A DNA stretch of 64,000 bases from contig NZ_PZOX01000005.1 of NCBI RefSeq assembly GCF_003044305.1, positions 451,493-515,492 of the forward strand, written 5' to 3'. The notes beneath the pieces are model-generated. The model was not told the origin of the DNA and did no database searches. It saw only the letters and a list, made by a program, of their open reading frames with translations. Source of the DNA: Vitiosangium sp. GDMCC 1.1324 (GTDB lineage Bacteria; Myxococcota; Myxococcia; Myxococcales; Myxococcaceae). The position numbers were made by a program, and so were the translations under genes. Shown piece after piece: positions 9,361 through 33,633 of this stretch. The number at the start of each line of letters is the position of its first letter. Position 1 is the first letter of the stretch.

Positions 9361-9391
9361 GACCTGCTCCTTCGGAATCGTTCGCCCGGTC

Positions 9392-13006: not shown

Positions 13007-13026
13007 GCCCCTCGTGAGGCCAGACC

Positions 13027-13494: not shown

Positions 13495-13553
13495 AGCCTC
13501 ACAAAGGATGCCGGCGGTTTCTCCCTTACATGTCTCACGGAAAGGAGCGGTAG

Positions 13554-14129
13554 ATGACATACATCAACATGACGACGGGACTGCTGAATGCGACGTACAG
13601 ATTGCTCGCCGAGTCGGCGAAGAATCCCGTCGAGGTCGGACTGCTGATGCGTTGGAACGAGGACGACCGTTACCTCTGGACGATCTGGTCCGAGGCATAC
13701 CATCCGGGCATCGTCACCAGCTATTCCTCGGCTGGGATGAGACGCGATGTCGGTGGGCATGCCGAGGAGATATTGATCAAGAATTGGAGGGGATACGAGC
13801 AAGAGGCGGGTTTCCGCCCCCGGATCGTCGATCTGATCCTCACCAAGCTTCCCTGCTTCATGACTTCGAATGCCGTGACGCTGGGCACGCGTCAACTGCC
13901 CGTGGGTTGTGCCGGCAAGCTCAAGGTGCTCATCGAGGAGATACAGCCCGGCGTGCTCGATTGGCGGCTCGCCTATTTCAGGGAGCTGAACCCCGGCCCC
14001 AACTCGGATATCGAGAACGGTGGATCCCTGTCGCTCCTGAGCACAATCCAAAAGCTGTCGGTCTACTCATTCTTGGATCACCATTCCTTCGTGGCGCAGG
14101 GCTTCGGGGATGGGCTGACGATTGCCTGA
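13554..14129 (+). CDS. hypothetical protein, lower GC than neighbours; candidate deaminase-like fold (HAE ... PC motif spacing)
   Basis: 191 aa. Contains GGHAEEILIKNW followed ~29 aa later by LTKLPCFMTSNAV. RBS ggaaaggag upstream. GC visibly lower than flanking T6SS genes. Confidence 0.55.
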   Translation: MTYINMTTGLLNATYRLLAESAKNPVEVGLLMRWNEDDRYLWTIWSEAYHPGIVTSYSSAGMRRDVGGHAEEILIKNWRGYEQEAGFRPRIVDLILTKLPCFMTSNAVTLGTRQLPVGCAGKLKVLIEEIQPGVLDWRLAYFRELNPGPNSDIENGGSLSLLSTIQKLSVYSFLDHHSFVAQGFGDGLTIA

Positions 14130-14213
14130 ATTGGCGCCCGTCACATCTCCCCGCGCCACGCTCTACCCTGGAGTGCGCAGTGAAAGCCAGACACACTGAA
14201 AAGGAAGAATGAC

Positions 14214-14723
14214 ATGCCCACAAAGGAAAGCATCCAACACGTTCTGGATCGGGTCCGCCCTCCGCGGGTGCAGATCACCTACGACGTGGAGATTGGTGAC
14301 GCGGTGGAACAGAAGGAGCTGCCGCTGGTGGTCGGCGTCCTGGCGGACCTGGCCGGCCAGCAGAAGGAGCTGCCTCGGTTGAAGGAGCGCAAGTTCGTGG
14401 AGATCGACCGCGACAACTTCAACAAGGTGATGGCGGCCATCGGGCCCCAGCTGCGGATGTCCGTGCCGGACAAGCTGCGCGACGATGGCGGCAGCATGGC
14501 CGTGGAGCTGCGCTTCAAGAGCATCGACTCCTTCCACCCGCGCCAGCTCGTCGAGCAGATAGAGCCCCTGCGGAAGCTGCTGGAGGCGCGCCAGCGGCTG
14601 GTGGACCTGCTCGCGAAGCTGGACGGCAATGACGCGCTGGCGGAGCTGCTGCGGTCCGCGCTGGAGGACAGGGCTCGCCTCCAGGCGCTCGAGTCCGAGC
14701 TGGCGGCGAAGCGCGAGCAGTGA
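14214..14723 (+). CDS. tssB: T6SS contractile sheath small subunit TssB (VipA)
   Basis: MPTKESIQHVLDRVRPPRVQITYDVEIGDAVEQKELPLVVGVLADLAGQ; 169 aa. Confidence 0.9.
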   Translation: MPTKESIQHVLDRVRPPRVQITYDVEIGDAVEQKELPLVVGVLADLAGQQKELPRLKERKFVEIDRDNFNKVMAAIGPQLRMSVPDKLRDDGGSMAVELRFKSIDSFHPRQLVEQIEPLRKLLEARQRLVDLLAKLDGNDALAELLRSALEDRARLQALESELAAKREQ

Positions 14724-14764
14724 GCACCCGTACCCATCCACACACACGACACGGAGAGAGAGAG

Positions 14765-16261: not shown

Positions 16262-16319
16262 GCCCCGGCCTCCACCGTCGTCATCTCCCAGACTCATTTC
16301 CATGAGGCGTTAGAAAGAC

Positions 16320-16781
16320 ATGGCTTCAAGCATTTATCTCAAGATCGCCAAGGCAGAGGGCAGCTCGCAGACCGATAAATTCAAGGACCAGATCGAGGTC
16401 CTCTCCTACCGTTATGAAATCGCCTTCCCCATGACGCTCAACGAGCGGTCCAACAAGGACGGGGGGATCGTCCGGCAGGGCCGCTCCGATCACGGACAGG
16501 TCGTCATCACCAAACACGTGGACAAGGCCTCGCCCAATCTCTTTCTGTCCTGTTGCGTAGGGGATAGCGTCGGCAACGCCACCCTCACCGTGAGTGGAAG
16601 CAAGGACAAAAAGATTTTCACCTACGAAATGACAGACGTCATCATCACCTCGGTCGCCGTCGGGGGCGGGGGCTCGGACGACCCGGTGGAGACGGTGAAG
16701 CTCGACTACGGCACCATCAAATGGGCGCAGGGCGAGAGCAACTCGACGAAGTGGGATCGCAAGAAGAACGAGTCGACCTGA
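16320..16781 (+). CDS. hcp: Hcp (TssD) tube protein
   Basis: MASSIYLKIAKAEGSSQTDKFKDQIEVLSYRYEIAFPM...; 153 aa, Hcp1 family. Confidence 0.85.
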   Translation: MASSIYLKIAKAEGSSQTDKFKDQIEVLSYRYEIAFPMTLNERSNKDGGIVRQGRSDHGQVVITKHVDKASPNLFLSCCVGDSVGNATLTVSGSKDKKIFTYEMTDVIITSVAVGGGGSDDPVETVKLDYGTIKWAQGESNSTKWDRKKNEST

Positions 16782-16831
16782 GCCAGAAGACAGACACGCA
16801 CACGACAGCGGCGGACGAGTGGAGGAGAGCA

Positions 16832-18649
16832 ATGGGCAGCAGTCAAGAAGAGTTGCTCCAGGCCTACCAGCGGGAGCTGGCATGGCTGCGCGGGGCGGGA
16901 GCGGAGTTCGCGGCCAGCTACCCCAAGCTGGCAGCGAGGCTGCGGCTGGGGGCCAGCGAGGTGGGCGATCCCCACGTGGAGCGCCTCATCGAGTCGTTCG
17001 CCTTCCTCACCGCGCGCGTCCAGCACGCCTTCGACAGCGACCTGCCGGAGCTCTCCACCGCCCTGCTGGGCCTGCTGGCTCCCCACCTGGTGGAGCCACT
17101 GCCCTCGCTGTCCATCGCCTGCTTCGAGGTGGATACGGCTGCCGGCCTGCCCCTGGCCGGCAGCCGTATCGAGCGCGGCACGCTTCTGCTGGCCGAGCCG
17201 CGCCCGGGGCAGACGTGCCGCTTCCACACCTGCTCCCCGGTGACGCTCTGGCCGCTGCGGGTGGCGGAGGCGAGCCTGGAGTCCCCGCTCTCCTTCGGCT
17301 GGCTGCGCGGGCGGCGGGACGTGTCGGCGGTGCTCCGGCTGCGGTTGGAGGCCAGCGAGGCCCGGCTGGCGGACCTGCAGTTGGATCGGCTCCAGTTCTT
17401 CCTCGACGGGCCCCCCGAGGTGACCTTCCGCCTCTTCGAGCTGTTCACCTGCCATGCCCGGGACGTGGCGCTCGTGCCGGACGGCTCGCCCGGCGAGCCC
17501 CGCTTCCAGCCCGCGGACAGCCTGCGGCAGCTCGGCTTCGGCCCCGAGGAGGCGGTGCTGCCTTCCCCGCCCCACCTCCACCGCGGCTACCGCCTCCTAC
17601 AGGAGTACTTCGCCTTCCCCGAGAAGTTCCTCTTCTTCGAGCTGGCGCTGGAGCGCGCGTGCGTCCAGGCCTCCCAGCAGGCGCTCGAGGTGCTCGTGCT
17701 GCTGGATGCCACGCCCGGCGAGGACCTCGCGCTCACGCCCGAGACGTTCCGGCTGGGCTGTACCCCCATCGTCAATCTCTTCCCCCAGCTGGCCGAGCCC
17801 ATCCGGTTGGACCAGCGCCGCACCGAATACCCGCTGGTGCCCGACTACCGCCGCCAGCAGGAGCTGGAGCTGCACTCCGTGCTCTCCGTCACCGCCGCCA
17901 CGGAAGGTGCCGGGCACCCGCAGGTGGTGGAGCCCTTCTTCTCCTGGCGCCACCGGGAGGACGAGCAGGAGCCGCGCGCCTTCTGGTACGCACGGCGCCG
18001 GCCCACGGGCCGCGCGCTGGGGCCCGGCTCCCAGGTGATGCTGTCCTTCGTGGACCTGGCGCTCGACCCCCACCTGCCGGCGGAGCAGACGCTGAACGTG
18101 CGCACGCTGTGCACCAACGGGGAGCTGCCCGTGCAGCTCGCGCCCGGCTCGGAGCTCCAGGTGGAGGAGCGCGTCCCCGTGGGCGCCATCCGCTGCCTGC
18201 GCCGTCCCACGCCGCCTCGCGCGCCCCCGGACCGGGGCCCCATGCTCTGGCAGCTCGTCTCGCTGCTGTCGCTCAACCACCTCTCGCTCGCCAACGGCCC
18301 CCAGGCGCTGGAGGCGCTCGAGGAGCTGCTGCGGCTGCATGACTTCTCCGGCGGCCAGGTGTGCGAGCACCAGCTCCAGGGCCTGACGGGAATGGAGAGC
18401 CGCCCGGTGGTGCGCCAGCGCGGCTGGGATGCCTGGCGGGGTTTCTGCCGGGGCCAGGAGATCACCCTCACCTTCGACGAGTCCCTCTACGTGGGCGGCA
18501 GTGCCCTGCTCCTCGCGGCGGTGCTCCATCACTTCTTCGGCCTGTACGCCCCGGTGGATTCCTTCACCCAGCTCGCCGCGAGGAGCGAGCAGCGAAAGGA
18601 CACATGGAAACGATGGCCCCCCATGGCCGGCGACGCGCCCCTGGTGTAG
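16832..18649 (+). CDS. tssF: T6SS baseplate protein TssF (ImpG/VasA)
   Basis: MGSSQEELLQAYQRELAWLRGAGAEFAASYPKLAARLRL...DPHVERLIESFAFLTARV is the TssF N-terminal signature. RBS ggaggagagc. Confidence 0.85.
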   Translation: MGSSQEELLQAYQRELAWLRGAGAEFAASYPKLAARLRLGASEVGDPHVERLIESFAFLTARVQHAFDSDLPELSTALLGLLAPHLVEPLPSLSIACFEVDTAAGLPLAGSRIERGTLLLAEPRPGQTCRFHTCSPVTLWPLRVAEASLESPLSFGWLRGRRDVSAVLRLRLEASEARLADLQLDRLQFFLDGPPEVTFRLFELFTCHARDVALVPDGSPGEPRFQPADSLRQLGFGPEEAVLPSPPHLHRGYRLLQEYFAFPEKFLFFELALERACVQASQQALEVLVLLDATPGEDLALTPETFRLGCTPIVNLFPQLAEPIRLDQRRTEYPLVPDYRRQQELELHSVLSVTAATEGAGHPQVVEPFFSWRHREDEQEPRAFWYARRRPTGRALGPGSQVMLSFVDLALDPHLPAEQTLNVRTLCTNGELPVQLAPGSELQVEERVPVGAIRCLRRPTPPRAPPDRGPMLWQLVSLLSLNHLSLANGPQALEALEELLRLHDFSGGQVCEHQLQGLTGMESRPVVRQRGWDAWRGFCRGQEITLTFDESLYVGGSALLLAAVLHHFFGLYAPVDSFTQLAARSEQRKDTWKRWPPMAGDAPLV

Positions 18650-19632
18650 CCCAGGAGCTCTTCGAGTCCGGCCACCGCTTCGACTTCTTCCAGGCCATGC
18701 GCCTGCTGCGCCTGCTCCGCCCGAAGGATCCGGTGCGGCTGCGCGCCTCGGTGGACCTGGCCTTCCCTCCCAGCGACATCGTCCAGGTGAAGCCGCCCGC
18801 GAAGCCGGGGGCCGCACCGGAGATGACGGTGGCCTTCCTCGGACTGGGCGGGGTGCAGGGGCCGCTGCCGAGGCCCTTCGCCCAGCAGCTCCGGGACCGC
18901 ACGCGCGCGGGAGACACCGGGCTGCGCGACTTCCTGGACATCTTCCACCACCGGCTGCTGTCGCAGCTCTACCAGGGGCGGGTGCTGCGCCGGGTGTGGC
19001 TGGAGCCGGGCCCGCCCGAAGCACACGCCGTGGCGCGCTACCTGTATGCGGTGATGGGCCTGGGCACCCGGGGCATGCGCGAACGGCTGGAGGTGGAGGA
19101 TCGGCTGCTGCTGCGCTACGCCGGGCTGCTGGCGCACCGGCCCGTGTCCCTGGAGGCGCTGCGGGCGATGCTCTCGGACGCGCTGGGGGTGGGGGTGAGG
19201 CCGCGGGCGCCCCGGGGCGCCTGGCTGGAGCTGGAAGAGGAGCAGCGCACGCGCCTGGGCCCCACCGGACGCAACCAGCGGCTCGGCCAGGGCGCGGTGC
19301 TCGGCGGGCGCGCCTGGCTGGAGCAGGCGGGCCTGGAGCTGGAGCTCGGGCCCCTCTCCTGGCGCCGCTACGTGGACCTGCTGCCCGGTAGCCGGGGACT
19401 GGGCGCCCTGCGCTCGCTCACCCGCTTCGCGCTGGGCCCCGGCCCCGAGGTGCGCCTGGTGCTAGCGGTGCGCACCGGGGAGATCCCCGAGCAACCCCTG
19501 AGCGCTCCGCACGGCCCGCGCCTGGGGTGGACGTCCTGGCTGAGAGCCAGACCGGGCCGGCAGGGAACGCAGGCGGTGGCGCTCTCGCCCCGTCACATGT
19601 CCGCGCCAGGCGCGCGGGAGGATGGAACATGA
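18604..19632 (+). CDS. tssG: T6SS baseplate protein TssG (ImpH)
   Basis: ...GHRFDFFQAMRLLRLL... is the TssG N-terminal motif. Start ambiguous (ATG 18604, 18613 or 18626); overlaps the tssF 3' end. Confidence 0.8.
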   Translation: METMAPHGRRRAPGVAQELFESGHRFDFFQAMRLLRLLRPKDPVRLRASVDLAFPPSDIVQVKPPAKPGAAPEMTVAFLGLGGVQGPLPRPFAQQLRDRTRAGDTGLRDFLDIFHHRLLSQLYQGRVLRRVWLEPGPPEAHAVARYLYAVMGLGTRGMRERLEVEDRLLLRYAGLLAHRPVSLEALRAMLSDALGVGVRPRAPRGAWLELEEEQRTRLGPTGRNQRLGQGAVLGGRAWLEQAGLELELGPLSWRRYVDLLPGSRGLGALRSLTRFALGPGPEVRLVLAVRTGEIPEQPLSAPHGPRLGWTSWLRARPGRQGTQAVALSPRHMSAPGAREDGT

Positions 19633-21479
19633 GGTCGGGATACACGCAGGACAACGTCTACCTCTCCGTCACCACGCCCCTGGGCAAGGACGTGCTGCTG
19701 CTGCACGGCATCCAGGGCGAGGAGGCCCTCTCCCAACCCTTCCACTTCACCCTGGAGCTGCACTCCGATCGGCTCGACGTGGACTTCTCGCGGGTGGTGG
19801 GCAAGAGCGCCACCATCTCCCTGGCCCAGCGGGACGGCAGTGAGCGCTTCTTCCACGGCATCATCACCCGCTTCGTCCAGGCCGGCACCTTCGCGGACTT
19901 CACCCGGTACATCGCCGAGCTGCGCCCCTGGTTCTGGCTGCTCACCCTCACCCGCGACAGCCGCATCTTCCAGAACCAGACGGTGCCGCAGATCCTCCAG
20001 CAGCTCTTCCAGGACCAGGGCTTCACCGACTTCCGGCTGGCGCTGCGGCGCACCTACACCCCTCGCGAGTATTGCGTGCAGCACCAGGAGTCCGCCTTCG
20101 ACTTCGCCTCGCGGCTGATGGAGGACGAGGGCATCTTCTACTTCTTCGAGCACACGAAGGACCGGCACACGCTGGTGCTGGCAGACGACGCGGCGGCCCA
20201 TGTGCCCTGCCCGGGGCCCGGGGTGGCGAAGGTCCAGGGGCACCTGAACGCGGCGCGGACGGAGGATGCCGTCACCGGGTGCGAGCTGGAGCAGCAGGTG
20301 GTGCCCGGGCGCTATGCCCTGGGGGACTACTTCTTCGAGACGCCGTCGACCCGGCTCCAGACCCAGGTGAAGGGCAAGGAGGGGAGCCAGGAGCAGTACG
20401 AGTACCCCGGGGACTTCACGCGCCGGGACGTGGGCGAGCGGCGCGGCCGGGTCCGGCTGGAGGCCCACGAGGCGCAGGCCCGGACCCTGCGAGGCCAGGG
20501 CCACGTGCGCTGGTTCATCCCCGGCTACCGCTTCACCCTCGCCGAGCACGAGCGCAAGGACCTCAATGGGGCGTACGTGCTGCGCTGGGTGTCGCACTCG
20601 GCCACGGTGGAGGCGTACTCCAACAGCTTCGAGGCCTTCCCCGCCGCCACGCCCTTCCGTCCGCCCCGGGTGACGCCCCGGCCGGTGGTCCACGGCGTCC
20701 AGAGCGCCCGGGTGGTGGGCAAGGCGGGCGAGGAGATATGGACGGACCGGTTCGGCCGGGTGAAGGTCCAGTTCCACTGGGACCGCGAGGGCAAGAAGGA
20801 CGAGAGCAGCTCGTGCTGGATGAGGGTGGCCCAGGGCCAGGCCGGCAAGGGCTGGGGCAACTTCTTCCTGCCCCACGTGGGCCAGGAGGTGCTCGTCACC
20901 TTCCTGGATGGGGATCCGGATCGGCCCATCGTCACCGGCTCCGTCTACAACGCCGAGCAGGTGGTGCCCTATCCGCTGCCCGCCGGACAGACCAAGAGCA
21001 CGTTGCGCGGGGATTCCTCCGGCAAGGGGGAGCCCAATGAGCTGCGCTTCGAGGACAAGAAGGGCGCGGAAGAGCTCTACCTGCACGCCCGCCGGGACAT
21101 GAAGACCACCGTGGCGCGCGACAGCGTGACGGAGATTCAAGGCAACTGCACCATCCGGGTGCGGGGCAACCTCACCCTGGACGTGGGGGGTTCCATCAAA
21201 ATCAAGGCGGGGAGGAGCCTCACCCAGGAGGCGAAGATGTCGCTGACGAGCATCGCGGGGATGAACCTCACCCAGAAGGCGAAGCTCGCCCTGGAGAGCT
21301 CGGCGGGAACGATGCTGATGCACAAGTCCAAGCTCATGATGATGAACGACGCCCAGATGCTGCTCAGCAACGTCAAGACAATGCACGTGCTCAAGGGGAT
21401 GCCCATGATGCTCCAGCTTCCGTTCCTCCCTGTCCCGGCGGGGGTGCCTCCACTCCCACCGATTCCGGACACCCCCTGA
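19629..21479 (+). CDS. vgrG: VgrG (TssI) spike protein, core only, no C-terminal effector extension
   Basis: MRSGYTQDNVYLSVTTPLGKDVLLLHGIQGEEALSQPFHFTLEL... (gp27-like), then gp5-like OB and beta-helix; 616 aa. ATGA start/stop overlap with tssG. Confidence 0.9.
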   Translation: MRSGYTQDNVYLSVTTPLGKDVLLLHGIQGEEALSQPFHFTLELHSDRLDVDFSRVVGKSATISLAQRDGSERFFHGIITRFVQAGTFADFTRYIAELRPWFWLLTLTRDSRIFQNQTVPQILQQLFQDQGFTDFRLALRRTYTPREYCVQHQESAFDFASRLMEDEGIFYFFEHTKDRHTLVLADDAAAHVPCPGPGVAKVQGHLNAARTEDAVTGCELEQQVVPGRYALGDYFFETPSTRLQTQVKGKEGSQEQYEYPGDFTRRDVGERRGRVRLEAHEAQARTLRGQGHVRWFIPGYRFTLAEHERKDLNGAYVLRWVSHSATVEAYSNSFEAFPAATPFRPPRVTPRPVVHGVQSARVVGKAGEEIWTDRFGRVKVQFHWDREGKKDESSSCWMRVAQGQAGKGWGNFFLPHVGQEVLVTFLDGDPDRPIVTGSVYNAEQVVPYPLPAGQTKSTLRGDSSGKGEPNELRFEDKKGAEELYLHARRDMKTTVARDSVTEIQGNCTIRVRGNLTLDVGGSIKIKAGRSLTQEAKMSLTSIAGMNLTQKAKLALESSAGTMLMHKSKLMMMNDAQMLLSNVKTMHVLKGMPMMLQLPFLPVPAGVPPLPPIPDTP

Positions 21480-21495
21480 GCGGAGGGAAGAGCCC

Positions 21496-22119
21496 GTGCC
21501 AACGGAAATCATCGAGAAGGACGAGCGGGGGCAGGTGCGCGAGCGTTACTTCGAGGACGACGAGGGCCGTCTGGAGGGAGTGGCCAGCCACTATGACGAG
21601 GACGGCCGGCTCGTCCAGGAGTCGCACTGGCGCGCGGGGACACTACACGGCCCCACGAGCTCCTACGGCCCCGACGGCCAGCTGTTGCAGCGGGTCCTGT
21701 TCGCGGACGGCCAGTTGCATGGACCGGCGGAGCTCCAGGACGAGCAGGGACGCCTGCGCATGCAGCTCGGATTCCACGAGGACAGGCCGCATGGCGAATT
21801 GCTCGCCTGGCAGGACGGCCAGCCCCTGATGAAGCACACCCTGGCGGAGGGCAGGCCCGAGGGTCCGCTCGAGCTCTATGAGGACGGCAAGCTCACCCGC
21901 CGGGTGCTCTTCGAGCGGGGATGGCCCCTGGACCAGGGACAGCCCCCGGAGCAGGCCTCGAAGGCTCAAGACGCGAAGGCTCAAGACGCGAAGGCTCAAG
22001 ACTCGATGGCTCCTGGACCGGAGGCCTCCGGGGACATTCCCTTGGAGCAGGAAGAGCAGGCACGGGCGCCACTCGACACCTGGTTCCAAGGCTGGCTCCG
22101 GGGAAGCGGCGGCTCCTGA
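21496..22119 (+). CDS. MORN-repeat-variant (YwqK-like) protein, possible VgrG-associated immunity/accessory protein
   Basis: Repeats of type G.L.G....Y..DGQL (HYDEDGRLVQESHWRAGTLHGPTSSYGPDGQLLQRVLFADGQLHGP...). C-terminal low-complexity KAQDAKAQDAKAQD. Confidence 0.55.
   Translation: MPTEIIEKDERGQVRERYFEDDEGRLEGVASHYDEDGRLVQESHWRAGTLHGPTSSYGPDGQLLQRVLFADGQLHGPAELQDEQGRLRMQLGFHEDRPHGELLAWQDGQPLMKHTLAEGRPEGPLELYEDGKLTRRVLFERGWPLDQGQPPEQASKAQDAKAQDAKAQDSMAPGPEASGDIPLEQEEQARAPLDTWFQGWLRGSGGS
21961..22005 (+). repeat. 15-bp tandem repeat x3 (aaggctcaagacgcg) encoding KAQDA repeats
   Basis: Seen directly in the sequence. Confidence 0.9.
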
Positions 22120-22260
22120 GGGAGCTGCTGCCGCCCCAGGATTCCTCGCCCAGCGCAACGCGAATGCACACGTCCGGGTCTACGACAGCTTCATTCCCCG
22201 GCCACTGTATGCCCTTCCGGTTCCCCACATGACTCCAACATGCGGCGAGATGAAACACGC

Positions 22261-23087
22261 CTACGGCTGGATGTTCTTGTTCAACCGGAAGAAGTTGGTC
22301 GGGTCGTAGGTGCGCTTCAGGGCGGTGAGGCGCTTCCATTTGGCCTCGCCGTACGTCTCCCGCACACGCCCGGCGGGCTCGTCGGCGTCGATGAAATTGA
22401 GCGGGGTCCCCCCGCTCGAGAAGGAGTGGGCGGCTTGCCAGGCGTCCTGCACCCAGCGAGTGTGGCGCTCGGCGTCGGCCGGGTCTCTCCAGCTCGACTG
22501 GAACATCGAAAAGAAAGGCGACGCGCGCCCCGAGAATGCGGTCTCGTCCTCGCCAACCCACGCGATCGCGCCCTTCATATGGGCGAGCTCCAGGAAGCAG
22601 AGGGACGACGGGGCCGCTCGAAGCTGCGCGGTGATGGCCTCGATGGCCTCCTCTCCCAGCTTGGAGAGATAATCCGAGCGGATGGCTTGACTGTAGCCAT
22701 GGGCAGCCCCCGGTCCCGAATCGAGTACCTTCTGATGACCCCCGCCTGAATGCGCGCGGTGCGCCGCGCTGGATCGACGCGGATGCCCTTCATGAGGGAG
22801 AGATCGATCACCAGGCCGCCGTCGCACACGCCGTTGCCGGCGACATCGTGCCCGCCGCCCCGCACCGCGACCAGCGCGTCGTGCTCCCGCGCGAACCGCA
22901 CGGCGGCGAGGGACATCGGCGGCCCCGGTGCATCGAGCGATCAACGCCGGCCGCTTGTCGATCCGAGCATTCCAGACGACGCGGGCCGCGTCGTAGCGCG
23001 GGCTGCCGGGGCAATGAGCTCGCCGCGAAAGTTGGACCGAAGCGAGTCGAGCGCGGATTGCTTGAAGCGAGCTCCCTGGGAATTCAT
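22261..23087 (-). pseudogene. decayed FAD-linked oxidase (BBE/PCMH-type) gene: three frames, internally deleted
   Basis: Frame 1: MNSQGARF...IAPGSPRYDAARVVWNARIDKRPALIARCTGAADV. Frame 2: AVRFAREHDALVAVRGGGHDVAGNGVCDGGLVIDLSLMKGIRVDPARRTARIQAGV (FAD_binding_4). Frame 3: ...GEDETAFSGRAS...YGEAKWKRLTALKRTYDPTNFFRLNKNIQP (BBE C-terminus). Total span ~830 nt versus ~1.4 kb expected. Confidence 0.55.
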
Positions 23088-23210
23088 GGTGGAAGGCCTC
23101 CTGGCGCCGAAGGGCGGGAAACCGCGGCGGCGGATGATGTGCGGCACGAGCAGGATGAGCACTTCCGTCCCCGGGCGGTGGAGATGCCGCCCAGGGAGGG
23201 GAGGGGCGCT

Positions 23211-24827
23211 TCATCCCTGGGGAATGACGATCTGCTGGCCCGGCATGAGGTTGTCTTTGTTGAGGCCGGGGTTGGCCTCCACGATGCGAGGCCATTGATT
23301 GCCGTCGTGCAGGTAGCGCTGGGCGATGTCGTAGATGATGTCGCCCGGCTTGACGGTGTAGAGCGTGCCCTTGGGTTTGTCCTTGGGCGCGTACTGGGAC
23401 GCGTACTGGGACGCGGAGGCCACGGGGCCCGTCTGGTTGGTCCAGCGGGGGCGCCCATCCGGGCCGCGGATGAGCAGGATGCCGTCGTCCCGCATCACCA
23501 GCTCGCTCTTCTCCTGGCCCTGGGTCTTGCTGCTCCACACGGGCGCATTGGCGGCCTGGTACACGACGAGATTGCCGTCGCGCTGCATGGCCGTGCGCCA
23601 GGCCCGCTTGCCCTGGGTGTTGGTGGCCCAGCGGGCCTGCTGGGTGGTCAGGTCGTAGATGACGAGGTTGCCGTCGTCCTGGTACACGAGGGCGAAGCGG
23701 CCGTTGGCGGAGACGAGCCGCTCGCCGGGCGTGAGGAACGCGTTGTCCCCTCCGCGCAGCACGCTCTTGGAGCCTCCGAGGAACACGCCCAGGAGGATCA
23801 GGAGCACGCCCAGCAGCACGCTCGCCGCGAGCCCTGCCTTGAGCAGGGTCAACTGCCGCCGGTTCTTGCGCAGGGCCTCGGCCTCGGGACTCGCCAGGCC
23901 GCTCTCGGGAAAGGCCTTGCGCTCCAGCAGCTGGGTGATGAAGGCCGGAGAGCGGGGCTCGCGCAGCCCGTCCCGGCCCGGCCGGAGGACACCTTCCGCG
24001 TCCGGATCCCCGCAGAAGTAGATGCCTCGCAGCAGCGCGGGCTCCGTGTAGGGGCTGGACTCGAAGAGTCCATCGAGCAGCCGCCGCACCGGCTCGGCCA
24101 TGTCGCGCAGCTGGGAGGGGAAGAGGAAGGCGGACTCGCGCTCGGCCGCGGTGCCGCGCCCATCGGCGAACAGCTCCAGCTGCATCGTGCACAGGCCCTG
24201 GTGGATGCTGGCGAAGGCCTCGTTCACCCACGCGGAGATGTACGGCTCCTGGGGCGGGTGGGGAGTGGACCAGCCGAGCATCTCCTCGCGCAGGCTCGGT
24301 GGCAGGGAGCGGCACCACGCCGTGAAGCCGGGGAGGACGTCACACTGGGTGATGACGACGTAGATGGGGAAGCGCACGCCCAGCTCGCCGCGCAGGGACT
24401 GCAAGCCCTGGAAGAGGGCACGCGCCTTGCGGTCGAGTCCGACGTCGTCGAGCGCCTGCGGGCCCATCAGCTCATGGGCCGGTATCGTGAGCAGCACGCC
24501 GTCGATGGGGCGCTGGCCCCGCACGCGGCGCAGATCTCTCAGCACGCCCTGGAACTCGGGCCCCGGCTCCTCCGTCAGGCCGGGCATGTCGATGACGGCG
24601 CCCTGGTCGTAGAGCCAGACGCCCCAGCCCTCGGCCTCCATCTCCTTGCGGCTGGGCGTACCGTAGGGACGGCGCAGGTGGGCGCCCGCGGCCAGCGAGG
24701 TGCGCCCCGAGCGCGGCTCTCCCACGAGCATGAGCCAGGGCAGTTGGTAGCGGCGATTGCGACGGGTGCCGGTGGCCCCGATGCGGTCGATCGCCGTGTC
24801 GATGGGAGATTTCTGGAGGGCGGTCAT
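23211..24827 (-). CDS. TssM/IcmF-like N-terminal NTPase domain protein fused to TM helix, bulb-type lectin (B_lectin) and C-terminal LysM domain
   Basis: Start MTALQK (ATGA overlap with tssL stop). YQLPWLMLVGEPRSGRTSLAAG (degenerate P-loop), PIYVVITQCDVLPGFTAWC (ImcF-related N-domain). TM LLKAGLAASVLLGVLLILLGVFLGG. Two QxDGNLVxY lectin motifs. LysM YTVKPGDIIYDIAQRYLHDGNQWPRIVEANPGLNKDNLMPGQQIVIP. Confidence 0.7.
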   Translation of the reverse strand: MTALQKSPIDTAIDRIGATGTRRNRRYQLPWLMLVGEPRSGRTSLAAGAHLRRPYGTPSRKEMEAEGWGVWLYDQGAVIDMPGLTEEPGPEFQGVLRDLRRVRGQRPIDGVLLTIPAHELMGPQALDDVGLDRKARALFQGLQSLRGELGVRFPIYVVITQCDVLPGFTAWCRSLPPSLREEMLGWSTPHPPQEPYISAWVNEAFASIHQGLCTMQLELFADGRGTAAERESAFLFPSQLRDMAEPVRRLLDGLFESSPYTEPALLRGIYFCGDPDAEGVLRPGRDGLREPRSPAFITQLLERKAFPESGLASPEAEALRKNRRQLTLLKAGLAASVLLGVLLILLGVFLGGSKSVLRGGDNAFLTPGERLVSANGRFALVYQDDGNLVIYDLTTQQARWATNTQGKRAWRTAMQRDGNLVVYQAANAPVWSSKTQGQEKSELVMRDDGILLIRGPDGRPRWTNQTGPVASASQYASQYAPKDKPKGTLYTVKPGDIIYDIAQRYLHDGNQWPRIVEANPGLNKDNLMPGQQIVIPQG

Positions 24828-25657
24828 CGGCGGTTCTCCTGGGCGGTGCGGGCGGCCGCGGGAGTGTGGTCGTGAGAGGTGTTGAGGACGATGGCGGTGG
24901 GGACGAGGACGAGGATCGCGGCGGCGATACCGGCGGCCCAGGGCCAGCGCGGCGCGAGCCGCCGATCCGAGCGCTCGTCCAGGGTGTGCGCGTAGGTCTG
25001 GGGCAGCAGCCGGCGCGACGGCGCGTCGGGCTCGGGCGGGCGTTGGTGGATGAGCACGTAGAGCTGGCGCTGCAGATCCTGCAGGAGCGCCTCCTCGCCG
25101 TGCTCGCGGTAGCGGCCCTGGAAACCGAGCGCGAGCATCAGCAGGTACACTTCGGCCATCTCGGCCTGGGTCGGGTCGCGGTCCTGCAGCAGGCGCTTCA
25201 CGTCTTCGAAGATGCGCTCGCCGGCGTGGTGGGTGCCAAAGAGCACGTCCTCCAGCAGGCCCTCGCGCCAAGCATCACGGCCGTACCACGGGGTGTTGAC
25301 GAGCACCTCGTCGGCGAAGCTGGCCATCACGTAGCGGCACTGCTCGAGCTGGCGCTCCTGGAGCGAGCCGCGGGGGGCGCCCTCGAGCCGGCTCTGCTGC
25401 TCCACGCGCGCGAGCAGTCGCTGGCGGATCTCCTCGACACTGGGGCCCTGCCGCCCCTGTCCGGAGGGGCGGGAGATGGCCTGCAGGCGTTGGCGCAGCT
25501 CGAGCAGCTCCGTGAAGAGCGTGCGGGTGCGCTCGAGCAACAGGGAGGAGCCGGACGGCTCATCGAAGAAGGGAGGCGTGTTCATGGCGGAAGAGGGCTC
25601 GCGGCGCCTGCCCCGGTCGTTCCAGGACGAGGAGGCGGAATGGGATGACGGACTCAT
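24824..25657 (-). CDS. tssL: T6SS membrane protein TssL (DotU family)
   Basis: LEQCRYVMASFADEVLVNTPWYGRDAW...FGTHHAGERIFEDVKRLL...EVYLLMLALGFQGRY plus C-terminal TM AAGIAAAILVLVPTAIVL. Alternative start ATG 25585. Confidence 0.8.
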   Translation of the reverse strand: MSPSSHSASSSWNDRGRRREPSSAMNTPPFFDEPSGSSLLLERTRTLFTELLELRQRLQAISRPSGQGRQGPSVEEIRQRLLARVEQQSRLEGAPRGSLQERQLEQCRYVMASFADEVLVNTPWYGRDAWREGLLEDVLFGTHHAGERIFEDVKRLLQDRDPTQAEMAEVYLLMLALGFQGRYREHGEEALLQDLQRQLYVLIHQRPPEPDAPSRRLLPQTYAHTLDERSDRRLAPRWPWAAGIAAAILVLVPTAIVLNTSHDHTPAAARTAQENRR

Positions 25658-25714
25658 GTGTGGTGACTCCTTCGGTTCTCAGGGTGAGTGGTGACGGCTG
25701 GATGTGACGTGGAC

Positions 25715-27028
25715 TCACGGCTCGTTGCGGATGAGCAGGGAGATATCGGCGGCGGCCTGCACCTCTCCGGGCTCCAGCGTGTTCTCGAGCAACAGCCGCT
25801 CATCGGGCCGGAGGTAGAAGGGACTGGCCTCCAGGGAGAAGAGGAGCGCACCAGGGCGGGGCACCAGGCCCGCGGGGGGCTCGATGAGCTCGCGCCGGGC
25901 CCCGAGCGTGCGCGTCTCGCGCATCTGCCGGTGGCGCGTGTCCGAGCCGATGCGGCACCCGGCCATCCATCCCAGCACCTGCTGCCGCGTGGTGCCCGGA
26001 CGGCCGCGCACTTCGAGCACCATCTCGCGGCCCATCCACGCGGGGAGCAGGCGCGTGTGGAAGCCGCTGCCCTCGGGAGTGAGCTGCACCCGCGTGTACG
26101 CCTCGGAGAGGCCCCGCTCCAGCGCGCCCTCGACGAAGTCGAACACCTGTTGGAAGGAGCGCAGCGGATCCAGGTGCTCGTACGCGGGGAACGCGGGAGG
26201 GATGCGCACCTCCGCGACGTGGGCGACCTGGCCGGCCAGGGAGCACAACGCGAGGTAGAGGGTGAAGGGGTGCACCTCGCCGGAGCGCAGCAGGGCCTCG
26301 TAGGGCGGCAGCCCGGCCACGAGCCAGTGCAGCTGACGCTGGTGCTCGGCGAGCACGTGCGGCTCGTCGGCGGCGTCGCGCATGGCCTCCACCAGGTGGG
26401 CGGCTTTCTGCCGGACGCGCAGGGAGAGCCGGTCACAGCGCTCGCCGAGCGTCGAATCCAGGCCCACGGCGAGCAGCGGCGGCAGGTAGTCCTCCACGGC
26501 GAAGGACTCGCCCAGGCGGCGCACCTCCACGAGCGGCAGGGAGGCGTACCCGGCGGGAGGCAGGCCGGCGAACAGCTGCAGGCGCGGGGTGAGCTGGGGG
26601 ATGCTCAGCGGCGTGTCCCCGGTGCTCTCGTCGACGAGCGGCTCGCTGGTGGTGGACACGAAGCGGCTGGGATTGCTCGTGCGCCCGGTGGGCACGCCCA
26701 CGTGCAGACGCACCGGGTGCTGCCAGTTCACCTCGGTGAGGCCCGCGAAGGCGAGTTGGAGGGGCGGGGCTCCTTCTCCCGCCTGGTACGAGAGGAACAG
26801 CCCATCGGGCAGCAGGGCCTCCAATTCCCGGAGCTGGAGGGTGCCCGCCACCAGGCGCGTGCGGTCGTACTCCAGCCGGCTCACGCCCCAGTGGAAGGGC
26901 GCGGCCCGCTGGAGATGGAAGTGCAGCAGCGCCTCGTGGTGCTGGTCCTGCTGTTGGAAGTGTTGGGGGGCCAGCAGCATGCCCTCGTGCCATTGCACGG
27001 CGGAGGGAATCGGCGGGGTGGGAGGCAT
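25715..27028 (-). CDS. tssK: T6SS baseplate protein TssK
   Basis: MPPTPPIPSAVQWHEGMLLAPQHFQQQDQHHEALLHFHL... is the canonical TssK N-terminus; 437 aa. Confidence 0.85.
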   Translation of the reverse strand: MPPTPPIPSAVQWHEGMLLAPQHFQQQDQHHEALLHFHLQRAAPFHWGVSRLEYDRTRLVAGTLQLRELEALLPDGLFLSYQAGEGAPPLQLAFAGLTEVNWQHPVRLHVGVPTGRTSNPSRFVSTTSEPLVDESTGDTPLSIPQLTPRLQLFAGLPPAGYASLPLVEVRRLGESFAVEDYLPPLLAVGLDSTLGERCDRLSLRVRQKAAHLVEAMRDAADEPHVLAEHQRQLHWLVAGLPPYEALLRSGEVHPFTLYLALCSLAGQVAHVAEVRIPPAFPAYEHLDPLRSFQQVFDFVEGALERGLSEAYTRVQLTPEGSGFHTRLLPAWMGREMVLEVRGRPGTTRQQVLGWMAGCRIGSDTRHRQMRETRTLGARRELIEPPAGLVPRPGALLFSLEASPFYLRPDERLLLENTLEPGEVQAAADISLLIRNEP

Positions 27029-29027: not shown

Positions 29028-29893
29028 GGCACTTCGTCATGGTCGCCTTGGGGGCCACCCTCTGGGGGTGCTGGTCCCTCTTCCTGCGCCCCGCTGGGCT
29101 CTCCGGCATCCAGTGCGCCTTCCTCTCCATGGCCCTCATGGCGCTCCCGGCGCCCTTCGTCCTCCGGCCCCAGGCCTTCCGGGACCGGCGGGCCACGCTC
29201 GCGCTCGGCATCCTCGGGCTGTCCGACGCCGCCAACTGCGCCCTCTTCTTCGCCGCCGTCCAGCGCGGCCCCGTCGCCGTCGCCGTCCTCACCCACTACC
29301 TCGCCCCCCTCCTCATCGCCCTCGCCGCCCCCTGGGTCCTCCGCGAGCGCCGCTCCACCCGCGCCCTCCTCGCCGCCCCCCTCACCCTCGCCGGCCTGGC
29401 GCTCCTGCTGGGGACTCCGCGCGGCGGCTTCTCCGACCCCTGGACCGCCCTGCTCGGAGGAGGCAGTGCCCTCTTCTACATGGCCAACGTCCTCGCCTCG
29501 AAAGAGGCCTCCCGGGCGTACTCGCCCCTGGCCGTCTCCGCCCTCCACGCCCCCATCGCCGCCCTCGCGCTCCTGCTCGTCTTCGGACGCGGCGCCCTGC
29601 CGCCCACGCTCGACTCCCACGTCCTCCTGGCCGCCGCCGGCTGCGTCCTGTGCGGCCTCTTCGCCAACATGCTGTTCCTCGCCGGACTGCGCGGCATCCC
29701 CACCACCGCCGCGGGAGCCCTCACCTACCTGGAGCCCCTCACCGCCGCCCTCGTCGGGCAGCTCGTCTTTGGCGAGGCCCTCGGGCCCCTGGGGGTCCTC
29801 GGGGGCCTCGCCGTCCTCCTCACGGGGGTCTGGGTCGCCAGCGAGCCTCGGGCCGGCGCCCAGCCGGTTCCCGCCCCCACGAGTACGGGGTAA
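29024..29893 (+). CDS. EamA/DMT family transporter
   Basis: 10-TM protein with duplicated EamA-like halves. GTG start overlapping the MATE stop (alternative ATG 29039). Confidence 0.7.
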   Translation: MRHFVMVALGATLWGCWSLFLRPAGLSGIQCAFLSMALMALPAPFVLRPQAFRDRRATLALGILGLSDAANCALFFAAVQRGPVAVAVLTHYLAPLLIALAAPWVLRERRSTRALLAAPLTLAGLALLLGTPRGGFSDPWTALLGGGSALFYMANVLASKEASRAYSPLAVSALHAPIAALALLLVFGRGALPPTLDSHVLLAAAGCVLCGLFANMLFLAGLRGIPTTAAGALTYLEPLTAALVGQLVFGEALGPLGVLGGLAVLLTGVWVASEPRAGAQPVPAPTSTG

Positions 29894-29917
29894 CCCGTGG
29901 GGTCGGGGGGGTCGAGG

Positions 29918-30256
29918 CTACTTCAGTTCCTCCTCCAGAGCGGCCCGGACCTGGGCGGTGAAGCCCGCCAGGAGCTGGCCGCCCGTGTCGATGAGGGGTC
30001 TGCGCACGTGGTTCGGGTTCGCCGCCAGGTGCCGCACCAGCTCCTCCTCCCCGAGCGCCCCCAGCTCCGCCTTCCTCTTGGGGGCGATCAGCTCCCGGAC
30101 TCCGCCCAACCTCGCCGCCAGGGCCCGGACCTCGGCCTCGCTCAGCGGCTTCTTCGCCAGCTCCCGCACTTCCGCCTGCACTGCCTTGTGCGCGAGAAAC
30201 TCCCGCGCTGACTTACAACCCGTTCAACCGTTCTTGATATAGAGCGTGATGGACAT
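29918..30256 (-). CDS. ArsC/Spx/YffB-family thioredoxin-fold protein with in-frame TGA (30226-30224) at the catalytic Cys position: candidate selenoprotein (U-T-G-C redox motif)
   Basis: Manual translation: MSITLYIKNG-[TGA]-TGCKSAREFLAHKAVQAEVRELAKK...RPLIDTGGQLLAGF...; compare YffB [20 protein letters not shown]. The ORF track shows only the 87-aa piece from GTG 30181. Hairpin GCGCGGG-AGUUU-CUCGCGC begins 16 nt 3' of the UGA. GGGAGG SD before ATG 30256. Confidence 0.5.
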
Positions 30257-30367
30257 GCCTCCCGTCTACCAGTCCACCCCCCTCCCCTCAAATACCCGCT
30301 TGCGCTGAGGGCCGGGGGAGTGGTCCTCTCTGGTCATCCCGTCTGCCTCCACGGGAGCAGTCCCCTC

Positions 30368-30913
30368 ATGGAACCCTCCGTCGATAGCCGCGAGTACCGC
30401 GTCGTCTTCTTCTGCCCGACCTCGAGCGCCCAGCTCGAACACATCGAGGCACCCGTGCGCCGCGTCCTCACGCGCATCTCCGCTCCCCCCGCCGAGCTCG
30501 CCCCGCTGGAGGCCGCCGGGACGCTCGGAGAGGCGGGCTGGCGTGTCTACCTGGTGCGCTCCATGACCGAGCGCTCCGCCGCGCACGCCCTGGCCGCCCA
30601 TGTCACCGAGGCCGCCGCGGCCATCGCCGCCGAGCTGGACACCGAGGTGCTCGGGCTCTACGTGGACGTGGCCAGCGACTCGTCGCGCGTGTGCCGCTGC
30701 ATGCCGGACGAGAGCCCCGAGACATTCGCCGGCCGCCGCCGCAACGTGCTCGACCGCACGGCCGAGTGGCTGGACGTCAACCCGGCCAGCCTGTCGGCCC
30801 TCTTCCAGCTCGGCATGGAGACGGACGAGGAGATGGACGCCGAGGACCGCTTCGTCGAGGCCAAGCTGCGCGAGGCGCGCGAGCTCATGCAGCGCTATCG
30901 TCAGGGCAAATGA
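30368..30913 (+). CDS. hypothetical protein, translationally coupled to the downstream DTW gene
   Basis: MEPSVDSREYRVVFFCPTSS...; stop TGA overlaps ATG of the next gene (caaATGAgg). Confidence 0.5.
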   Translation: MEPSVDSREYRVVFFCPTSSAQLEHIEAPVRRVLTRISAPPAELAPLEAAGTLGEAGWRVYLVRSMTERSAAHALAAHVTEAAAAIAAELDTEVLGLYVDVASDSSRVCRCMPDESPETFAGRRRNVLDRTAEWLDVNPASLSALFQLGMETDEEMDAEDRFVEAKLREARELMQRYRQGK

Positions 30914-31503
30914 GGTCTCGGACCCCGGCGGATCTCGCCGGTCGCTGCCCCGGCTGTTACCTGCCCACCGCGCTGTGCCTGTGCGCCGACGTGCCCCGGC
31001 TCGAGACGCGCACGCGCTTCCTCGTCATCCGCCACAACAAGGAAGCGAACAAGTCCACCAACACGGCGCGGCTGGCGGCGCTCGCCCTGACGAACTGCCA
31101 CATCGTCTCCTATGGAGCCCCGGGTCAGCCCTTCGACCTGTCGGTGCTCGCGGCGCCGGACACGTGGCTGCTCTTCCCGGATGCCCAGCCGCCCCCGCCC
31201 GGTACGCCTCCGCCCGAGCGCGTGGTGGTGCTGGATGGCAACTGGACGCAGGCCCGGCGCATGTACCAACGACTGCCCGAGCTGCGCCGCCTGCCGGGGC
31301 TCCCCCTGCCTCCTCCCCCGCCAGAGGCCCGGCGCCTGCGCCGCTCGCCCCACCCCTATGGGATGTCCACCGTGGAGGCCATCGCCGGGGCCATCTCCGT
31401 CCTCGAGGGCGAGCCGGTGGCCCGCTCGCTCCATGCGCTCCACGAGCTGATGATCGACCGCGTGCTCGCCGCCCGGGGCCGGATCAACGACGACGACGAC
31501 TGA
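30910..31503 (+). CDS. DTW-domain protein (tRNA-uridine aminocarboxypropyltransferase TapT/YfiP family)
   Basis: CPGCYLPTALCLC Cys cluster and VLDGNWTQARRMY (DTW motif). Confidence 0.75.
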   Translation: MRSRTPADLAGRCPGCYLPTALCLCADVPRLETRTRFLVIRHNKEANKSTNTARLAALALTNCHIVSYGAPGQPFDLSVLAAPDTWLLFPDAQPPPPGTPPPERVVVLDGNWTQARRMYQRLPELRRLPGLPLPPPPPEARRLRRSPHPYGMSTVEAIAGAISVLEGEPVARSLHALHELMIDRVLAARGRINDDDD

Positions 31504-31556: not shown

Positions 31557-32138
31557 ATGGTCATCGGACAGCATCTCGGTGGTAGGGTCGGCGCCGTGAA
31601 TCAAAGGCTGATCTTCGATTACACACTGCAGAGCAACCTCCGGGTGCTGGGACAACCGCTCGCGCCCGAACATGTCTCCGGGCTGATGGAGCTGGGCGTC
31701 GACCCGAGCAGGCCGTTGCTGCCGGCGTACCCGGTGGAGACGTACACCGCGGTCATCGACTTCATCGCCGCGCAGCTGTGGCCGGGGCTGCCTCGGGACG
31801 AGGCGGGCTTCGAGCTGGGCCGGGCCTTCATGCGCTCGTACCGGGAGACGCTGATGGGCAAGGCGGTGCTCTCGGTGACGCGGGTCATCGGGCCGCACCG
31901 GACCCTGGAGCGCATGAACCGCAACTTCCGCAGCGCGAACAACTACACCGAGACGCGCCTGCAGAAGGTGGGGCCGAGCACCTACGAACTGTGGTTCAAC
32001 TATGCGATGCGCACCGGCTACTTCCGGGGGCTGATCACCGAGGCGCTGGAGAAGACCAGCGCCAAGGCGCTCTCGGTGACGCTCGTCGCCAGCAGTACCG
32101 GCGGCGAGGCCACGTTCCGCATCTCGTGGACGGATTGA
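31557..32138 (+). CDS. TIGR02265/DUF2378-like protein (myxobacterial paralogous family), tentative
   Basis: 193 aa. Its 3' ~125 nt is duplicated at 34496-34628. Confidence 0.5.
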   Translation: MVIGQHLGGRVGAVNQRLIFDYTLQSNLRVLGQPLAPEHVSGLMELGVDPSRPLLPAYPVETYTAVIDFIAAQLWPGLPRDEAGFELGRAFMRSYRETLMGKAVLSVTRVIGPHRTLERMNRNFRSANNYTETRLQKVGPSTYELWFNYAMRTGYFRGLITEALEKTSAKALSVTLVASSTGGEATFRISWTD

Positions 32139-32328: not shown

Positions 32329-33633
32329 ATGATGCAGAGAGCTTCGTTCCTCCTCCCTCGCCTGTTCCTAGCGCTGAGCCTCGCCCTTGCCTCCTCGTGT
32401 GCCACCTCTCAATCCGGTGTGGCCGACAACCAGAGCCAACCACCTGCTGAGCCCCAAGTGGTGCGCGCCACGTGGTTGCTGGGAGAGCAGCTCCAGCTCG
32501 ACTTCGAGCCCGTCCCGCTGCCTCCCCGTCTGGAGACAGTCACGGTGGAGGAAATCCGTTCGGTGCTTGCCGACTTCCTCCAATGCGTCGAGGACACGTC
32601 CCAGTTCCAGATCCTTCCCGTCCTGGCCTCATCCACGAGCGGGCTCCCGCCATGGGAAGCGCGGCTGCGTGCGGAGTTCCTCACCCGGTACGGCCCAGGG
32701 CTGTTGCCACTGCCCGACTCGTTGGAACGCAGCCCGCTTTTCATGGCCCTCAGGCTCTCGCCTCGCTATATGGGGCCGGGCCTCCGCGACGCAGCGCGAG
32801 AGCTGTTCCGCTCGCCCATCTTCCTGGCCAGCGTCACTCTGTCGATCCTGGTGTACTTCTCCGCGTGGGTGCTGCCCGAGCCCCTCTTCTCCAAGGCGTT
32901 CGCCGCCACGCTTACCGCCAGGCTCGCGCTCGCGGTGGGACTGTTGGAGCTGCGCAACATCGCGCTGGCCTTCCTGCAGTTCTACAGAGAGGCACAAACG
33001 GCCAGGACGATGAAGGAGATAGAAGCCGTCGCCGAGAGGTTCGGCCGTGCGCTCGGAGGCACGGCGCTGCGCGTGCTCGTCATGGCCGCCAGCTTCGGCG
33101 TGGCGAAGGCCCTGCCCAACGTGCCTCCCGGCGGGCTCGGCCCGCTGCTGAGTTCTCCACGCTTTGCCATGGCGGGGGGAGGAAGCGTCCAGTTCGCGAG
33201 CACGGCTCATGTGGTGGCGGACGGCACCATTGTTCTCGCGGGAGCGGCCATGGGGACTGCCGGCTCCACGGCGGGCGGTGTCTGCAGTGACGGCTCCGAG
33301 AAGAAGGACGGCTACCAGTGGCACCACCTGGCCACAGACAAGAATGACGCTTCACCTCTGAGAGGTGGACCTTGGACACCGCGCTTCCAGCGGCTCTTTG
33401 GCAAGGCGGGAATGCAGCTCAACGATCCCGCGAACCGCGTCTACCTCTTGGGCCATCTGGGACCACACCCAGAGCGGTATCACGCGGAAGTCCACCGGAG
33501 GCTCGAAGCAGCCCTGGAAGGCTGTGGCAGCATCTCGCAGTGCAGAGTGCGCTTGGTGGAGGAACTCCGAAGAATCAAGGATGAAGTATGCACCCGCGGC
33601 TCCCCCCTGCATCGGCTCCTGACGGAATCGTGA
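32329..33633 (+). CDS. lipoprotein polymorphic toxin with C-terminal HNH/EndoVII-fold nuclease domain of WHH/AHH type (SitA-like)
   Basis: Lipobox LALSLALASSC. C-terminal DGYQWHHLATDKNDASPLRGGPW...QLNDPANRVYLLGHLGPHPERYHAEVHRRL (HH...N...H...H pattern of WHH/AHH toxin domains). Confidence 0.6.
   Translation: MMQRASFLLPRLFLALSLALASSCATSQSGVADNQSQPPAEPQVVRATWLLGEQLQLDFEPVPLPPRLETVTVEEIRSVLADFLQCVEDTSQFQILPVLASSTSGLPPWEARLRAEFLTRYGPGLLPLPDSLERSPLFMALRLSPRYMGPGLRDAARELFRSPIFLASVTLSILVYFSAWVLPEPLFSKAFAATLTARLALAVGLLELRNIALAFLQFYREAQTARTMKEIEAVAERFGRALGGTALRVLVMAASFGVAKALPNVPPGGLGPLLSSPRFAMAGGGSVQFASTAHVVADGTIVLAGAAMGTAGSTAGGVCSDGSEKKDGYQWHHLATDKNDASPLRGGPWTPRFQRLFGKAGMQLNDPANRVYLLGHLGPHPERYHAEVHRRLEAALEGCGSISQCRVRLVEELRRIKDEVCTRGSPLHRLLTES

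Follow-up and report, generated by a model that had tools for sequence, protein, structure and literature searches.

A predicted selenocysteine-encoding gene of the ArsC/Spx/MgsR superfamily in myxobacteria

The minus strand of a 64-kb stretch of DNA, which was analyzed over its whole length and is referred to here as the window, contains a reading frame that is interrupted at codon 11 by an in-frame TGA. Very probably the locus is a genuine selenocysteine-encoding gene, which specifies a 112-residue selenoprotein of the ArsC/Spx/MgsR superfamily with a thioredoxin-like fold. This reading is carried by the structure of the gene, by the conservation of the UGA among orthologues, by a hairpin that is constrained at the RNA level and by the correspondence between the UGA and a Cys in homologous proteins. 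The features of the locus, in window coordinates, are as follows.

29918-30256, minus strand: complete predicted selenoprotein coding sequence of 112 codons including Sec11, plus the stop codon TAG (29920-29918), delimited from translation, Pfam and orthologues
30227-30256, minus strand: the N-terminal ten codons, MSITLYIKNG, absent from the ORF call and assigned by homology to strand beta-1
30224-30226, minus strand: in-frame TGA, codon 11, predicted Sec codon and first position of the U-T-G-C redox motif
30215-30217, minus strand: TGT for Cys14, the resolving Cys of the UxxC motif, invariant in the orthologues and in the Cys homologues
30190-30208, minus strand: SECIS-like hairpin GCGCGGG-AGUUU-CUCGCGC, which spans codons 17-22 (AREFLA) and the first base of codon 23
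29918-30181, minus strand: 87-aa ORF of the mechanical ORF listing, starting with GTG at 30181; a fragment without the active site

The reading frame across the UGA and its conservation

The frame opens with an ATG at 30256-30254 of the minus strand, which is followed by nine sense codons (SITLYIKNG) and then by the TGA. Past the TGA it reads TGCKSAREFLAHKAVQAEV... and runs unbroken into the 87-aa ORF; the translation around the TGA is MSITLYIKNG-UGA-TGCKSAREFLA.... Sequence and frame thus agree with the original prediction, which had read the minus strand from this ATG through the TGA into the 87-aa ORF. Public annotations call the gene much as the 87-aa ORF does. Pfam recognizes the read-through protein with the model Glutaredoxin (28.6 bits, where 22.9 are required) and with ArsC (PF03960; 27.1 bits, where 24 are required). 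With 22.8 bits, the 87-aa fragment by itself stays below the ArsC cutoff; it also lacks the active site, as had been anticipated for a protein without the N-terminal segment. By homology the ten N-terminal codons are predicted to be strand beta-1 of the thioredoxin-like fold, which would lead into the active-site turn.

A GGGAGG upstream of the ATG at 30256 ends 1 nt before it; the spacing of a Shine-Dalgarno sequence is usually longer. Scanning positions 29600-30600 for promoter and terminator consensus sequences gave no sites. The window has a G+C content of 68.5%, and its closest relatives are Archangium genomes. A search of the window for other TGA-interrupted frames returned two candidates, at 48785 (minus strand) and 54875 (plus strand), which were unconvincing; the filter that was used missed the known gene at 30256 too, because its N-terminal exon is so short.

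The UGA is conserved. TGA occurs at codon 11 in 31 of 31 orthologous loci, which come from genomes, MAGs and metagenomes and show 55-93% amino-acid identity. Nineteen of the loci (56-93% identity) were obtained by a scan of one genome per species and belong to A. gephyra, A. violaceum, A. minus, A. lansingense, Archangium MAGs and MAGs assigned to Archangiaceae, Myxococcaceae and Myxococcales. A metagenome scan contributed nine further loci, and exact-protein look-ups added the A. violaceum chromosome, an Aggregicoccus MAG and one other MAG. A JGI contig, which likewise has the TGA, duplicates one of the loci (L026) and was left out of the count of 31.

Across the clades represented by these 31 loci the peptide pattern x-x-x-L-Y-[IFLV]-K-[KN]-G-U-T-[GS]-C is kept on both sides of the TGA; the sequence 5' of the start codon diverges freely. 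The codons that flank the TGA vary synonymously, with TAT or TAC for Tyr6, ACG or ACC for Thr12 and TGT or TGC for Cys14. A conserved peptide and synonymous codon changes, both before and after the TGA, indicate that the two sides are translated in one frame. Since this is combined with a TGA in 31 loci, a sequencing error and a recent nonsense mutation are excluded.

Protein databases contain this family in truncated form. A word-indexed search of 5.8 billion proteins recovered 44 relatives, all of which are fragments of 63-104 aa that start at or after the TGA. Two of these entries (P0001 and P0028) begin with 'MGCK...' or 'MGCN...', that is, with the codon directly after the TGA. The fragments are named 'arsenate reductase', 'ArsC/Spx/MgsR family protein' or 'hypothetical protein'.

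Two peculiarities were noticed among the orthologous loci. In a soil metagenome copy on a 1-kb contig (L030, 768-986) the TGA and the hairpin are kept, but from about residue 55 onward the frame is lost (...GERLGVRHALQLLA...), owing either to a frameshift that made the copy a pseudogene or to an error in the assembly. The MAG Archangium sp. SMAG_U3368 contains two different copies on two contigs (L002 and L007; 92% and 89% identical to the window protein), which reflects either a mixed bin or a duplicated locus. The copy L007 is identical to L008, which comes from another MAG.

The hairpin downstream of the UGA

The SECIS-like element is the 19-nt sequence GCGCGGGAGUUUCUCGCGC at 30208-30190. 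Its stem consists of seven pairs, one of them a G.U wobble, and is closed by the loop AGUUU; RNAfold adds an eighth pair (A-U), which closes a GUU triloop. Between the UGA and the first stem base lie 15 nt. The original prediction had placed the hairpin sixteen nt 3' of the UGA, a figure that is correct as the position of the first stem base and one too many for the spacer itself.

The published model of a bacterial SECIS has a loop of 3-9 nt, a stem of 4-16 bp and an MFE of -7.5 kcal/mol or lower, with a G in the first two loop positions (N1-G-[G/U]-N-N2) and a distance of 16-37 nt from the UGA to the loop (PMC13188914). The hairpin of the window agrees with this model in every respect: the loop is A-G-U-U-U, the stem has 7-8 bp, the distance is 22-23 nt and the MFE is -11.7 kcal/mol. 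The 7-bp stem with an AGUUU loop at a SECIS-like position, as originally described, is therefore confirmed. No Rfam family matched in the window at gathering thresholds. As an isolated 19-nt hairpin the element has a z score of -4.2, and 0 of 200 shuffled sequences fold as well. The fold of the 61-nt context is unremarkable for such G+C-rich DNA (z = -1.26), so that the thermodynamics of the single sequence are not decisive; it is the comparison of orthologues which shows that the hairpin is not a product of chance.

In 27 non-redundant orthologues the hairpin is invariant with the exception of loop base 5, which is U or C. Synonymous pair diversity at codons 17-22 (AREFLA) is 0.024, compared with a mean of 0.38 at other invariant, degenerate residues, and the hairpin codons have the lowest synonymous diversity of 88 six-codon windows. 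A single codon is used at five of the six hairpin codons versus three of 22 outside the hairpin (Fisher p = 0.003). Phe20, which lies in the hairpin, keeps the rare TTT; Phe99 is almost always encoded by TTC. Because the hairpin also fixes the peptide AREFLA, this stretch is under both protein and RNA constraint, and the gene would illustrate clearly how a SECIS hairpin can dictate a peptide.

The fact that the hairpin is invariant within the myxobacterial clade means that covariation cannot be seen there, and more distant relatives were examined instead. Among 1.84 billion representatives, a full HMMER search found 105 hits; the best of these were again truncated at the N-terminus, and many of them start with 'M[GTS]C'. 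In each of the contigs taken from five of these distant relatives, a TGA lies directly upstream and the distance to a hairpin is unchanged. The hairpins are the following.

L031: GCAAGAGA-GUU-UCUCUUGC
L032, a member-like hit of NCBIfam NF041106: GCGAGAGA-GUU-UCUCUCGC
L037: GGAAAGC-GUG-GCUUUCC
L033: GCGC-GGUCA-GCGC
L035: identical in sequence to the hairpin of the window

An ungapped alignment of nine hand-picked sequences, three of them divergent, has 95.8% of its cells paired, with double-sided changes in five of the eight pairs. These values of pairing and covariation were reached by 0 of 500 column shuffles and by no slid register of the alignment. Since the sample is small and hand-picked, we take this result as supporting rather than stand-alone evidence.

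The peptide AREFL after the UxxC motif, together with the hairpin that encodes it, recurs in L031 (83-148), L032 (504-569) and L035 (242-307). It is thus present in separate lineages of the ArsC superfamily, including a member of the NF041106 type, and the stems differ by compensatory changes. The recurrence suggests either one ancestral Sec form or the transfer of a SECIS-bearing N-terminus between lineages. As at least two lineages of ArsC-superfamily selenoproteins have this hairpin in versions that differ by compensatory changes, it should be useful for building a covariance model with which further members can be found.

L037 (419-1818) contains a distant UxxC gene of the Spx/MgsR type that scores 76 bits on TIGR01617 even in truncated form. 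This gene adjoins genes with Se_S_carrier (PF11823) and TusA/DsrE domains, and its surroundings are possibly a neighbourhood for selenium or sulfur trafficking.

Decoding of the UGA, alternative readings and gene surroundings

From the observations above we infer that selenocysteine is actually inserted at the UGA of codon 11. The ribosome would start at the ATG at 30256 and reach this UGA, where SelB with GTP and Sec-tRNA(Sec) would be recruited by the mRNA hairpin 15 nt downstream (stem of 7-8 bp, apical loop (A)GUU(U)), so that selenocysteine would be inserted instead of termination. In the resulting U11-T-G-C14 motif, which lies where Spx-type proteins have their CxxC, Sec11 would act as the nucleophile or as the residue that senses redox state. 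Sec11 and Cys14 would then form a reversible selenenylsulfide/selenol-thiol couple at the N-terminal end of helix 1, in the manner of the CxxC of Spx-type proteins. As to its biochemical role, the protein may be a reductase of the thiol-disulfide or of the arsenate type, or else a redox-sensing regulator similar to Spx.

The machinery for this decoding was searched for in the DNA at hand. ARAGORN found no tRNA in the 64-kb window, and a Pfam scan of its 39 ORFs revealed no sel gene; tblastn with approximate E. coli SelA, SelB and SelD queries gave no hits in the window and the fetched loci (284 kb). A search of the literature on myxobacteria together with selenocysteine returned only the A. 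gephyra genome paper, in which one tRNA-Sec is reported for the genome of A. gephyra DSM 2261 (PMC5441343). Cystobacter, Stigmatella, Myxococcus and Corallococcus are listed as Sec-utilizing, and between one and three selenoproteins are counted in related myxobacteria, with three in Corallococcus coralloides (Peng et al., PMC5029168 Table S2). The source genome presumably contains selA, selB, selC and selD.

One rival explanation of the TGA is a pseudogene or an error: an ordinary CxxC gene of the ArsC family would have been inactivated by a recent nonsense change from TGC/TGT to TGA, or would contain a sequencing error. The TGA is indeed one base away from TGT or TGC, and both gene callers and public annotations treat the site as a stop. 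The original prediction had itself raised the nonsense mutation and an error at 30224-30226 as dangers, but neither is borne out: the orthologues have TGA and not TGC or TGT at this codon in 31 of 31 loci from independent assemblies of genomes, MAGs and metagenomes, the peptide to either side of the TGA is kept while its codons vary synonymously, and no version with a Cys codon was found closer than about 37% identity. Since the divergence of the orthologues (55-93% identity) also excludes that they are copies of one contaminating sequence, this explanation is effectively refuted and deserves next to no credence. The UGA could instead be a true stop, which ends a 10-residue leader, with a hairpin that serves attenuation or translational coupling and a protein that starts downstream, for example at the GTG at 30181. 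Bacteria do have short leader ORFs with hairpins after them, and the 87-aa ORF has this possible GTG start; yet the codons that separate the UGA from the GTG (TGCKSAREFLAHK...) show conservation at the protein level in the same frame, with an invariant Cys14 and synonymous changes, and the first possible downstream start differs among orthologues, which is why the called proteins vary between 63 and 104 aa. A product without the N-terminus would have neither strand beta-1 nor any part of the active site and scores too low for Pfam, and the supposed leader peptide itself matches strand beta-1 of Spx. Taken together, it is most unlikely that the UGA separates two products.

Read-through might also occur without selenium, if a near-cognate or suppressor tRNA inserted Trp, Cys, Arg or Gly with stimulation by the hairpin. 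Downstream structure can stimulate read-through in other systems, and sel machinery was not seen in the window or the fetched loci (284 kb). However, the site is that of the catalytic Cys of a CxxC motif, where besides Cys only Sec would keep the redox chemistry, and the hairpin has specific bSECIS features, including the G-U at the start of the loop and the correct distance. In addition, the same architecture is present in the curated selenoprotein family NF041106, and a tRNA-Sec is reported in Archangium (PMC5441343). A selenium-free decoding of the codon is therefore very unlikely. A further reading accepts selenocysteine and concerns the role of the protein, which would be an Spx-like redox sensor and not a reductase; it would bind RNA polymerase, and a Sec11-Cys14 selenenylsulfide switch would replace the disulfide. 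This idea, which we regard as unlikely, draws on Spx as the closest characterized relative and on the isolated position of the gene, which has neither a reductase partner nor ars genes in its vicinity. The one hint of binding to the alpha C-terminal domain of RNA polymerase and of redox-dependent control of transcription is a Gly that aligns with the Gly of the Spx segment EDGTDEII. If it were true, the protein would be a selenocysteine-based transcriptional regulator in aerobic soil myxobacteria. A selenoprotein with a UxxC redox motif remains our preferred reading of the locus.

The surroundings of the gene were compared between clades. In Archangium and Aggregicoccus the UxxC gene is located between a divergently transcribed pair, consisting of a gene for a 181-197-aa protein without a Pfam hit followed by one for a DTW-domain protein, and a convergent pair, EamA followed by MatE. 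MatE is seen in the Archangium loci only, the Aggregicoccus contig ending after EamA. The order DTW, 181-197-aa gene, UxxC gene and EamA is shared by Archangium and Aggregicoccus; clades further away have other neighbours, namely PilZ, cNMP-binding and T2SSE genes. Because the neighbours differ in this way, the UxxC gene appears to stand alone and its context offers no functional lead. Among Archangium loci the 181-197-aa gene shows over 90% identity, and it shares a few bases with the start of the DTW-domain gene. This region, in which the 181-197-aa gene is divergent from the UxxC gene, has the following coordinates.

Window: 30320-31503
L020: 6682-7814
L038: 1-728
L039: 1676-2808

Several other features of the window were recorded. 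A gene for a DsbD-like membrane thiol-disulfide transporter (DsbD_TM and thioredoxin domains) lies at 45906-47324 on the minus strand, 16 kb from the selenoprotein gene; in one MAG (L039, 1-1020) a DsbD-like gene lies 2 kb from it. This proximity may be coincidental. Positions 11912-27028 contain a type VI secretion cluster with ImpA_N/TssA, gp25-like TssE, VipA, VipB, Hcp, TssF, VgrG, a MORN-repeat protein, IcmF-related_N with LysM, DotU and TssK. An RNA repair operon is present at 6950-11136, with the cyclase RtcA and the ligase RtcB on the minus strand and the sigma-54 activator RtcR in divergent orientation. A protein with an AHH-family HNH/EndoVII nuclease domain adjoins a DUF2378 protein (32329-33633 and 31557-32138) and is possibly a polymorphic toxin; tblastn of the AHH protein against the related loci then compared gave no match.

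Relation to Cys homologues and to known selenoproteins

The UGA corresponds to a catalytic Cys. In 10 of 10 aligned full-length homologues (28-37% identity) a Cys is found both at the UGA column and at position +3, with active sites such as PTCTGC, RGCSGC and PGCTAC; no homologue with a Cys codon at this site was found closer than about 37% identity. The best matches in the PDB are Spx proteins, namely 3l78 (E = 1.8e-7), 6ghb and 1z3e. In the alignment with Spx, Cys10 of the CxxC falls on the UGA column, and VTLYTSPS falls on the N-terminus. This alignment and the invariant Cys of the 10 homologues uphold the earlier assignment of the TGA to the catalytic first Cys of a CxxC motif. The comparison with YffB that accompanied it was fair as an analogy, although Spx proteins are the closest among the solved structures; the PDB matches to YffB (E = 0.002) and ArsC (E = 0.03) are weaker.

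Among the NCBIfam models the best match is TIGR01617 (Spx/MgsR), with 41.5 bits against a cutoff of 75.05. The window protein scores 33 bits with NF041106, 'ArsC family (seleno)protein' (cutoff 85), and 26.1 bits with the ArsC model TIGR00014 (cutoff 106.05). A true member of NF041106 (P0101) scores 81 bits with that model even when truncated. The Pfam threshold is thus passed and no NCBIfam cutoff is reached, which makes the protein a member of the PF03960 superfamily outside all curated subfamilies.

ArsC-like selenoproteins have been catalogued since 2005-2008, so that this kind of protein is already known. The catalogues include 'Arsenate reductase, UxxS' in the Sargasso Sea (PMC1088965), 'ArsC-like' selenoproteins in Desulfotalea and Desulfuromonas (PMC1794560), 'Arsenate reductase 2, cd03032, UxxC' in the GOS selenoproteome (PMC2398784) and, later, 'Arsenate reductase-like protein' with UxxC and NF041106 (PMC9312934, PMC13188914). 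These catalogues and the 44 truncated database entries agree with the statement in the original prediction that such proteins have been reported before and are missed by gene callers. By curated models and database entries the myxobacterial clade is a new, unannotated member; the earlier counts of one to three selenoproteins may include it. The value of the finding lies in annotation, given that 44 of 44 public entries are fragments without the active site and that no curated NCBIfam model reaches its threshold. It would add a selenoprotein to Archangium, Aggregicoccus and related uncultured Myxococcota, which are aerobic soil organisms, and it leaves the knowledge of selenocysteine decoding and of the ArsC fold unchanged.

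The comparison with known systems places the window protein as follows. The UxxC selenoproteins of NF041106 and the GOS data set have the same superfamily fold, with a U-x-x-C about 10 residues from the N-terminus and a SECIS position common to both. The NF041106-type relative L032 even has the same hairpin loop and the same AREFL peptide as the window gene. The window protein differs from this relative in having NPxHVRRPLIDTG instead of GTLRAPVIRIG; its clade is separate from NF041106 and was found here only in myxobacterial genomes and MAGs and in metagenome contigs of unknown origin. With Spx/MgsR (TIGR01617) it has in common the position of the CxxC, the RRP motif and the Gly of the EDGTDEII segment. 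Unlike Spx, it is predicted to carry Sec at the position of the first Cys; it is also shorter by about 20 residues, has a six-residue deletion in the helical subdomain and is without the C-terminal tail. The glutaredoxin-coupled arsenate reductase ArsC (TIGR00014) and its UxxS selenoprotein form (PMC1088965) belong to the same PF03960 and have their catalytic residue at the equivalent N-terminal position, but the motif of the window protein is UxxC and not UxxS or CxxS; no ars genes are located near the window gene. The YffB-type reductases (NF008107; PDB 1rw1) are small proteins with the same fold as the window protein, but the similarity is weak, with 16 bits against a cutoff of 121 and a PDB E value of 0.002 over residues 16-106.
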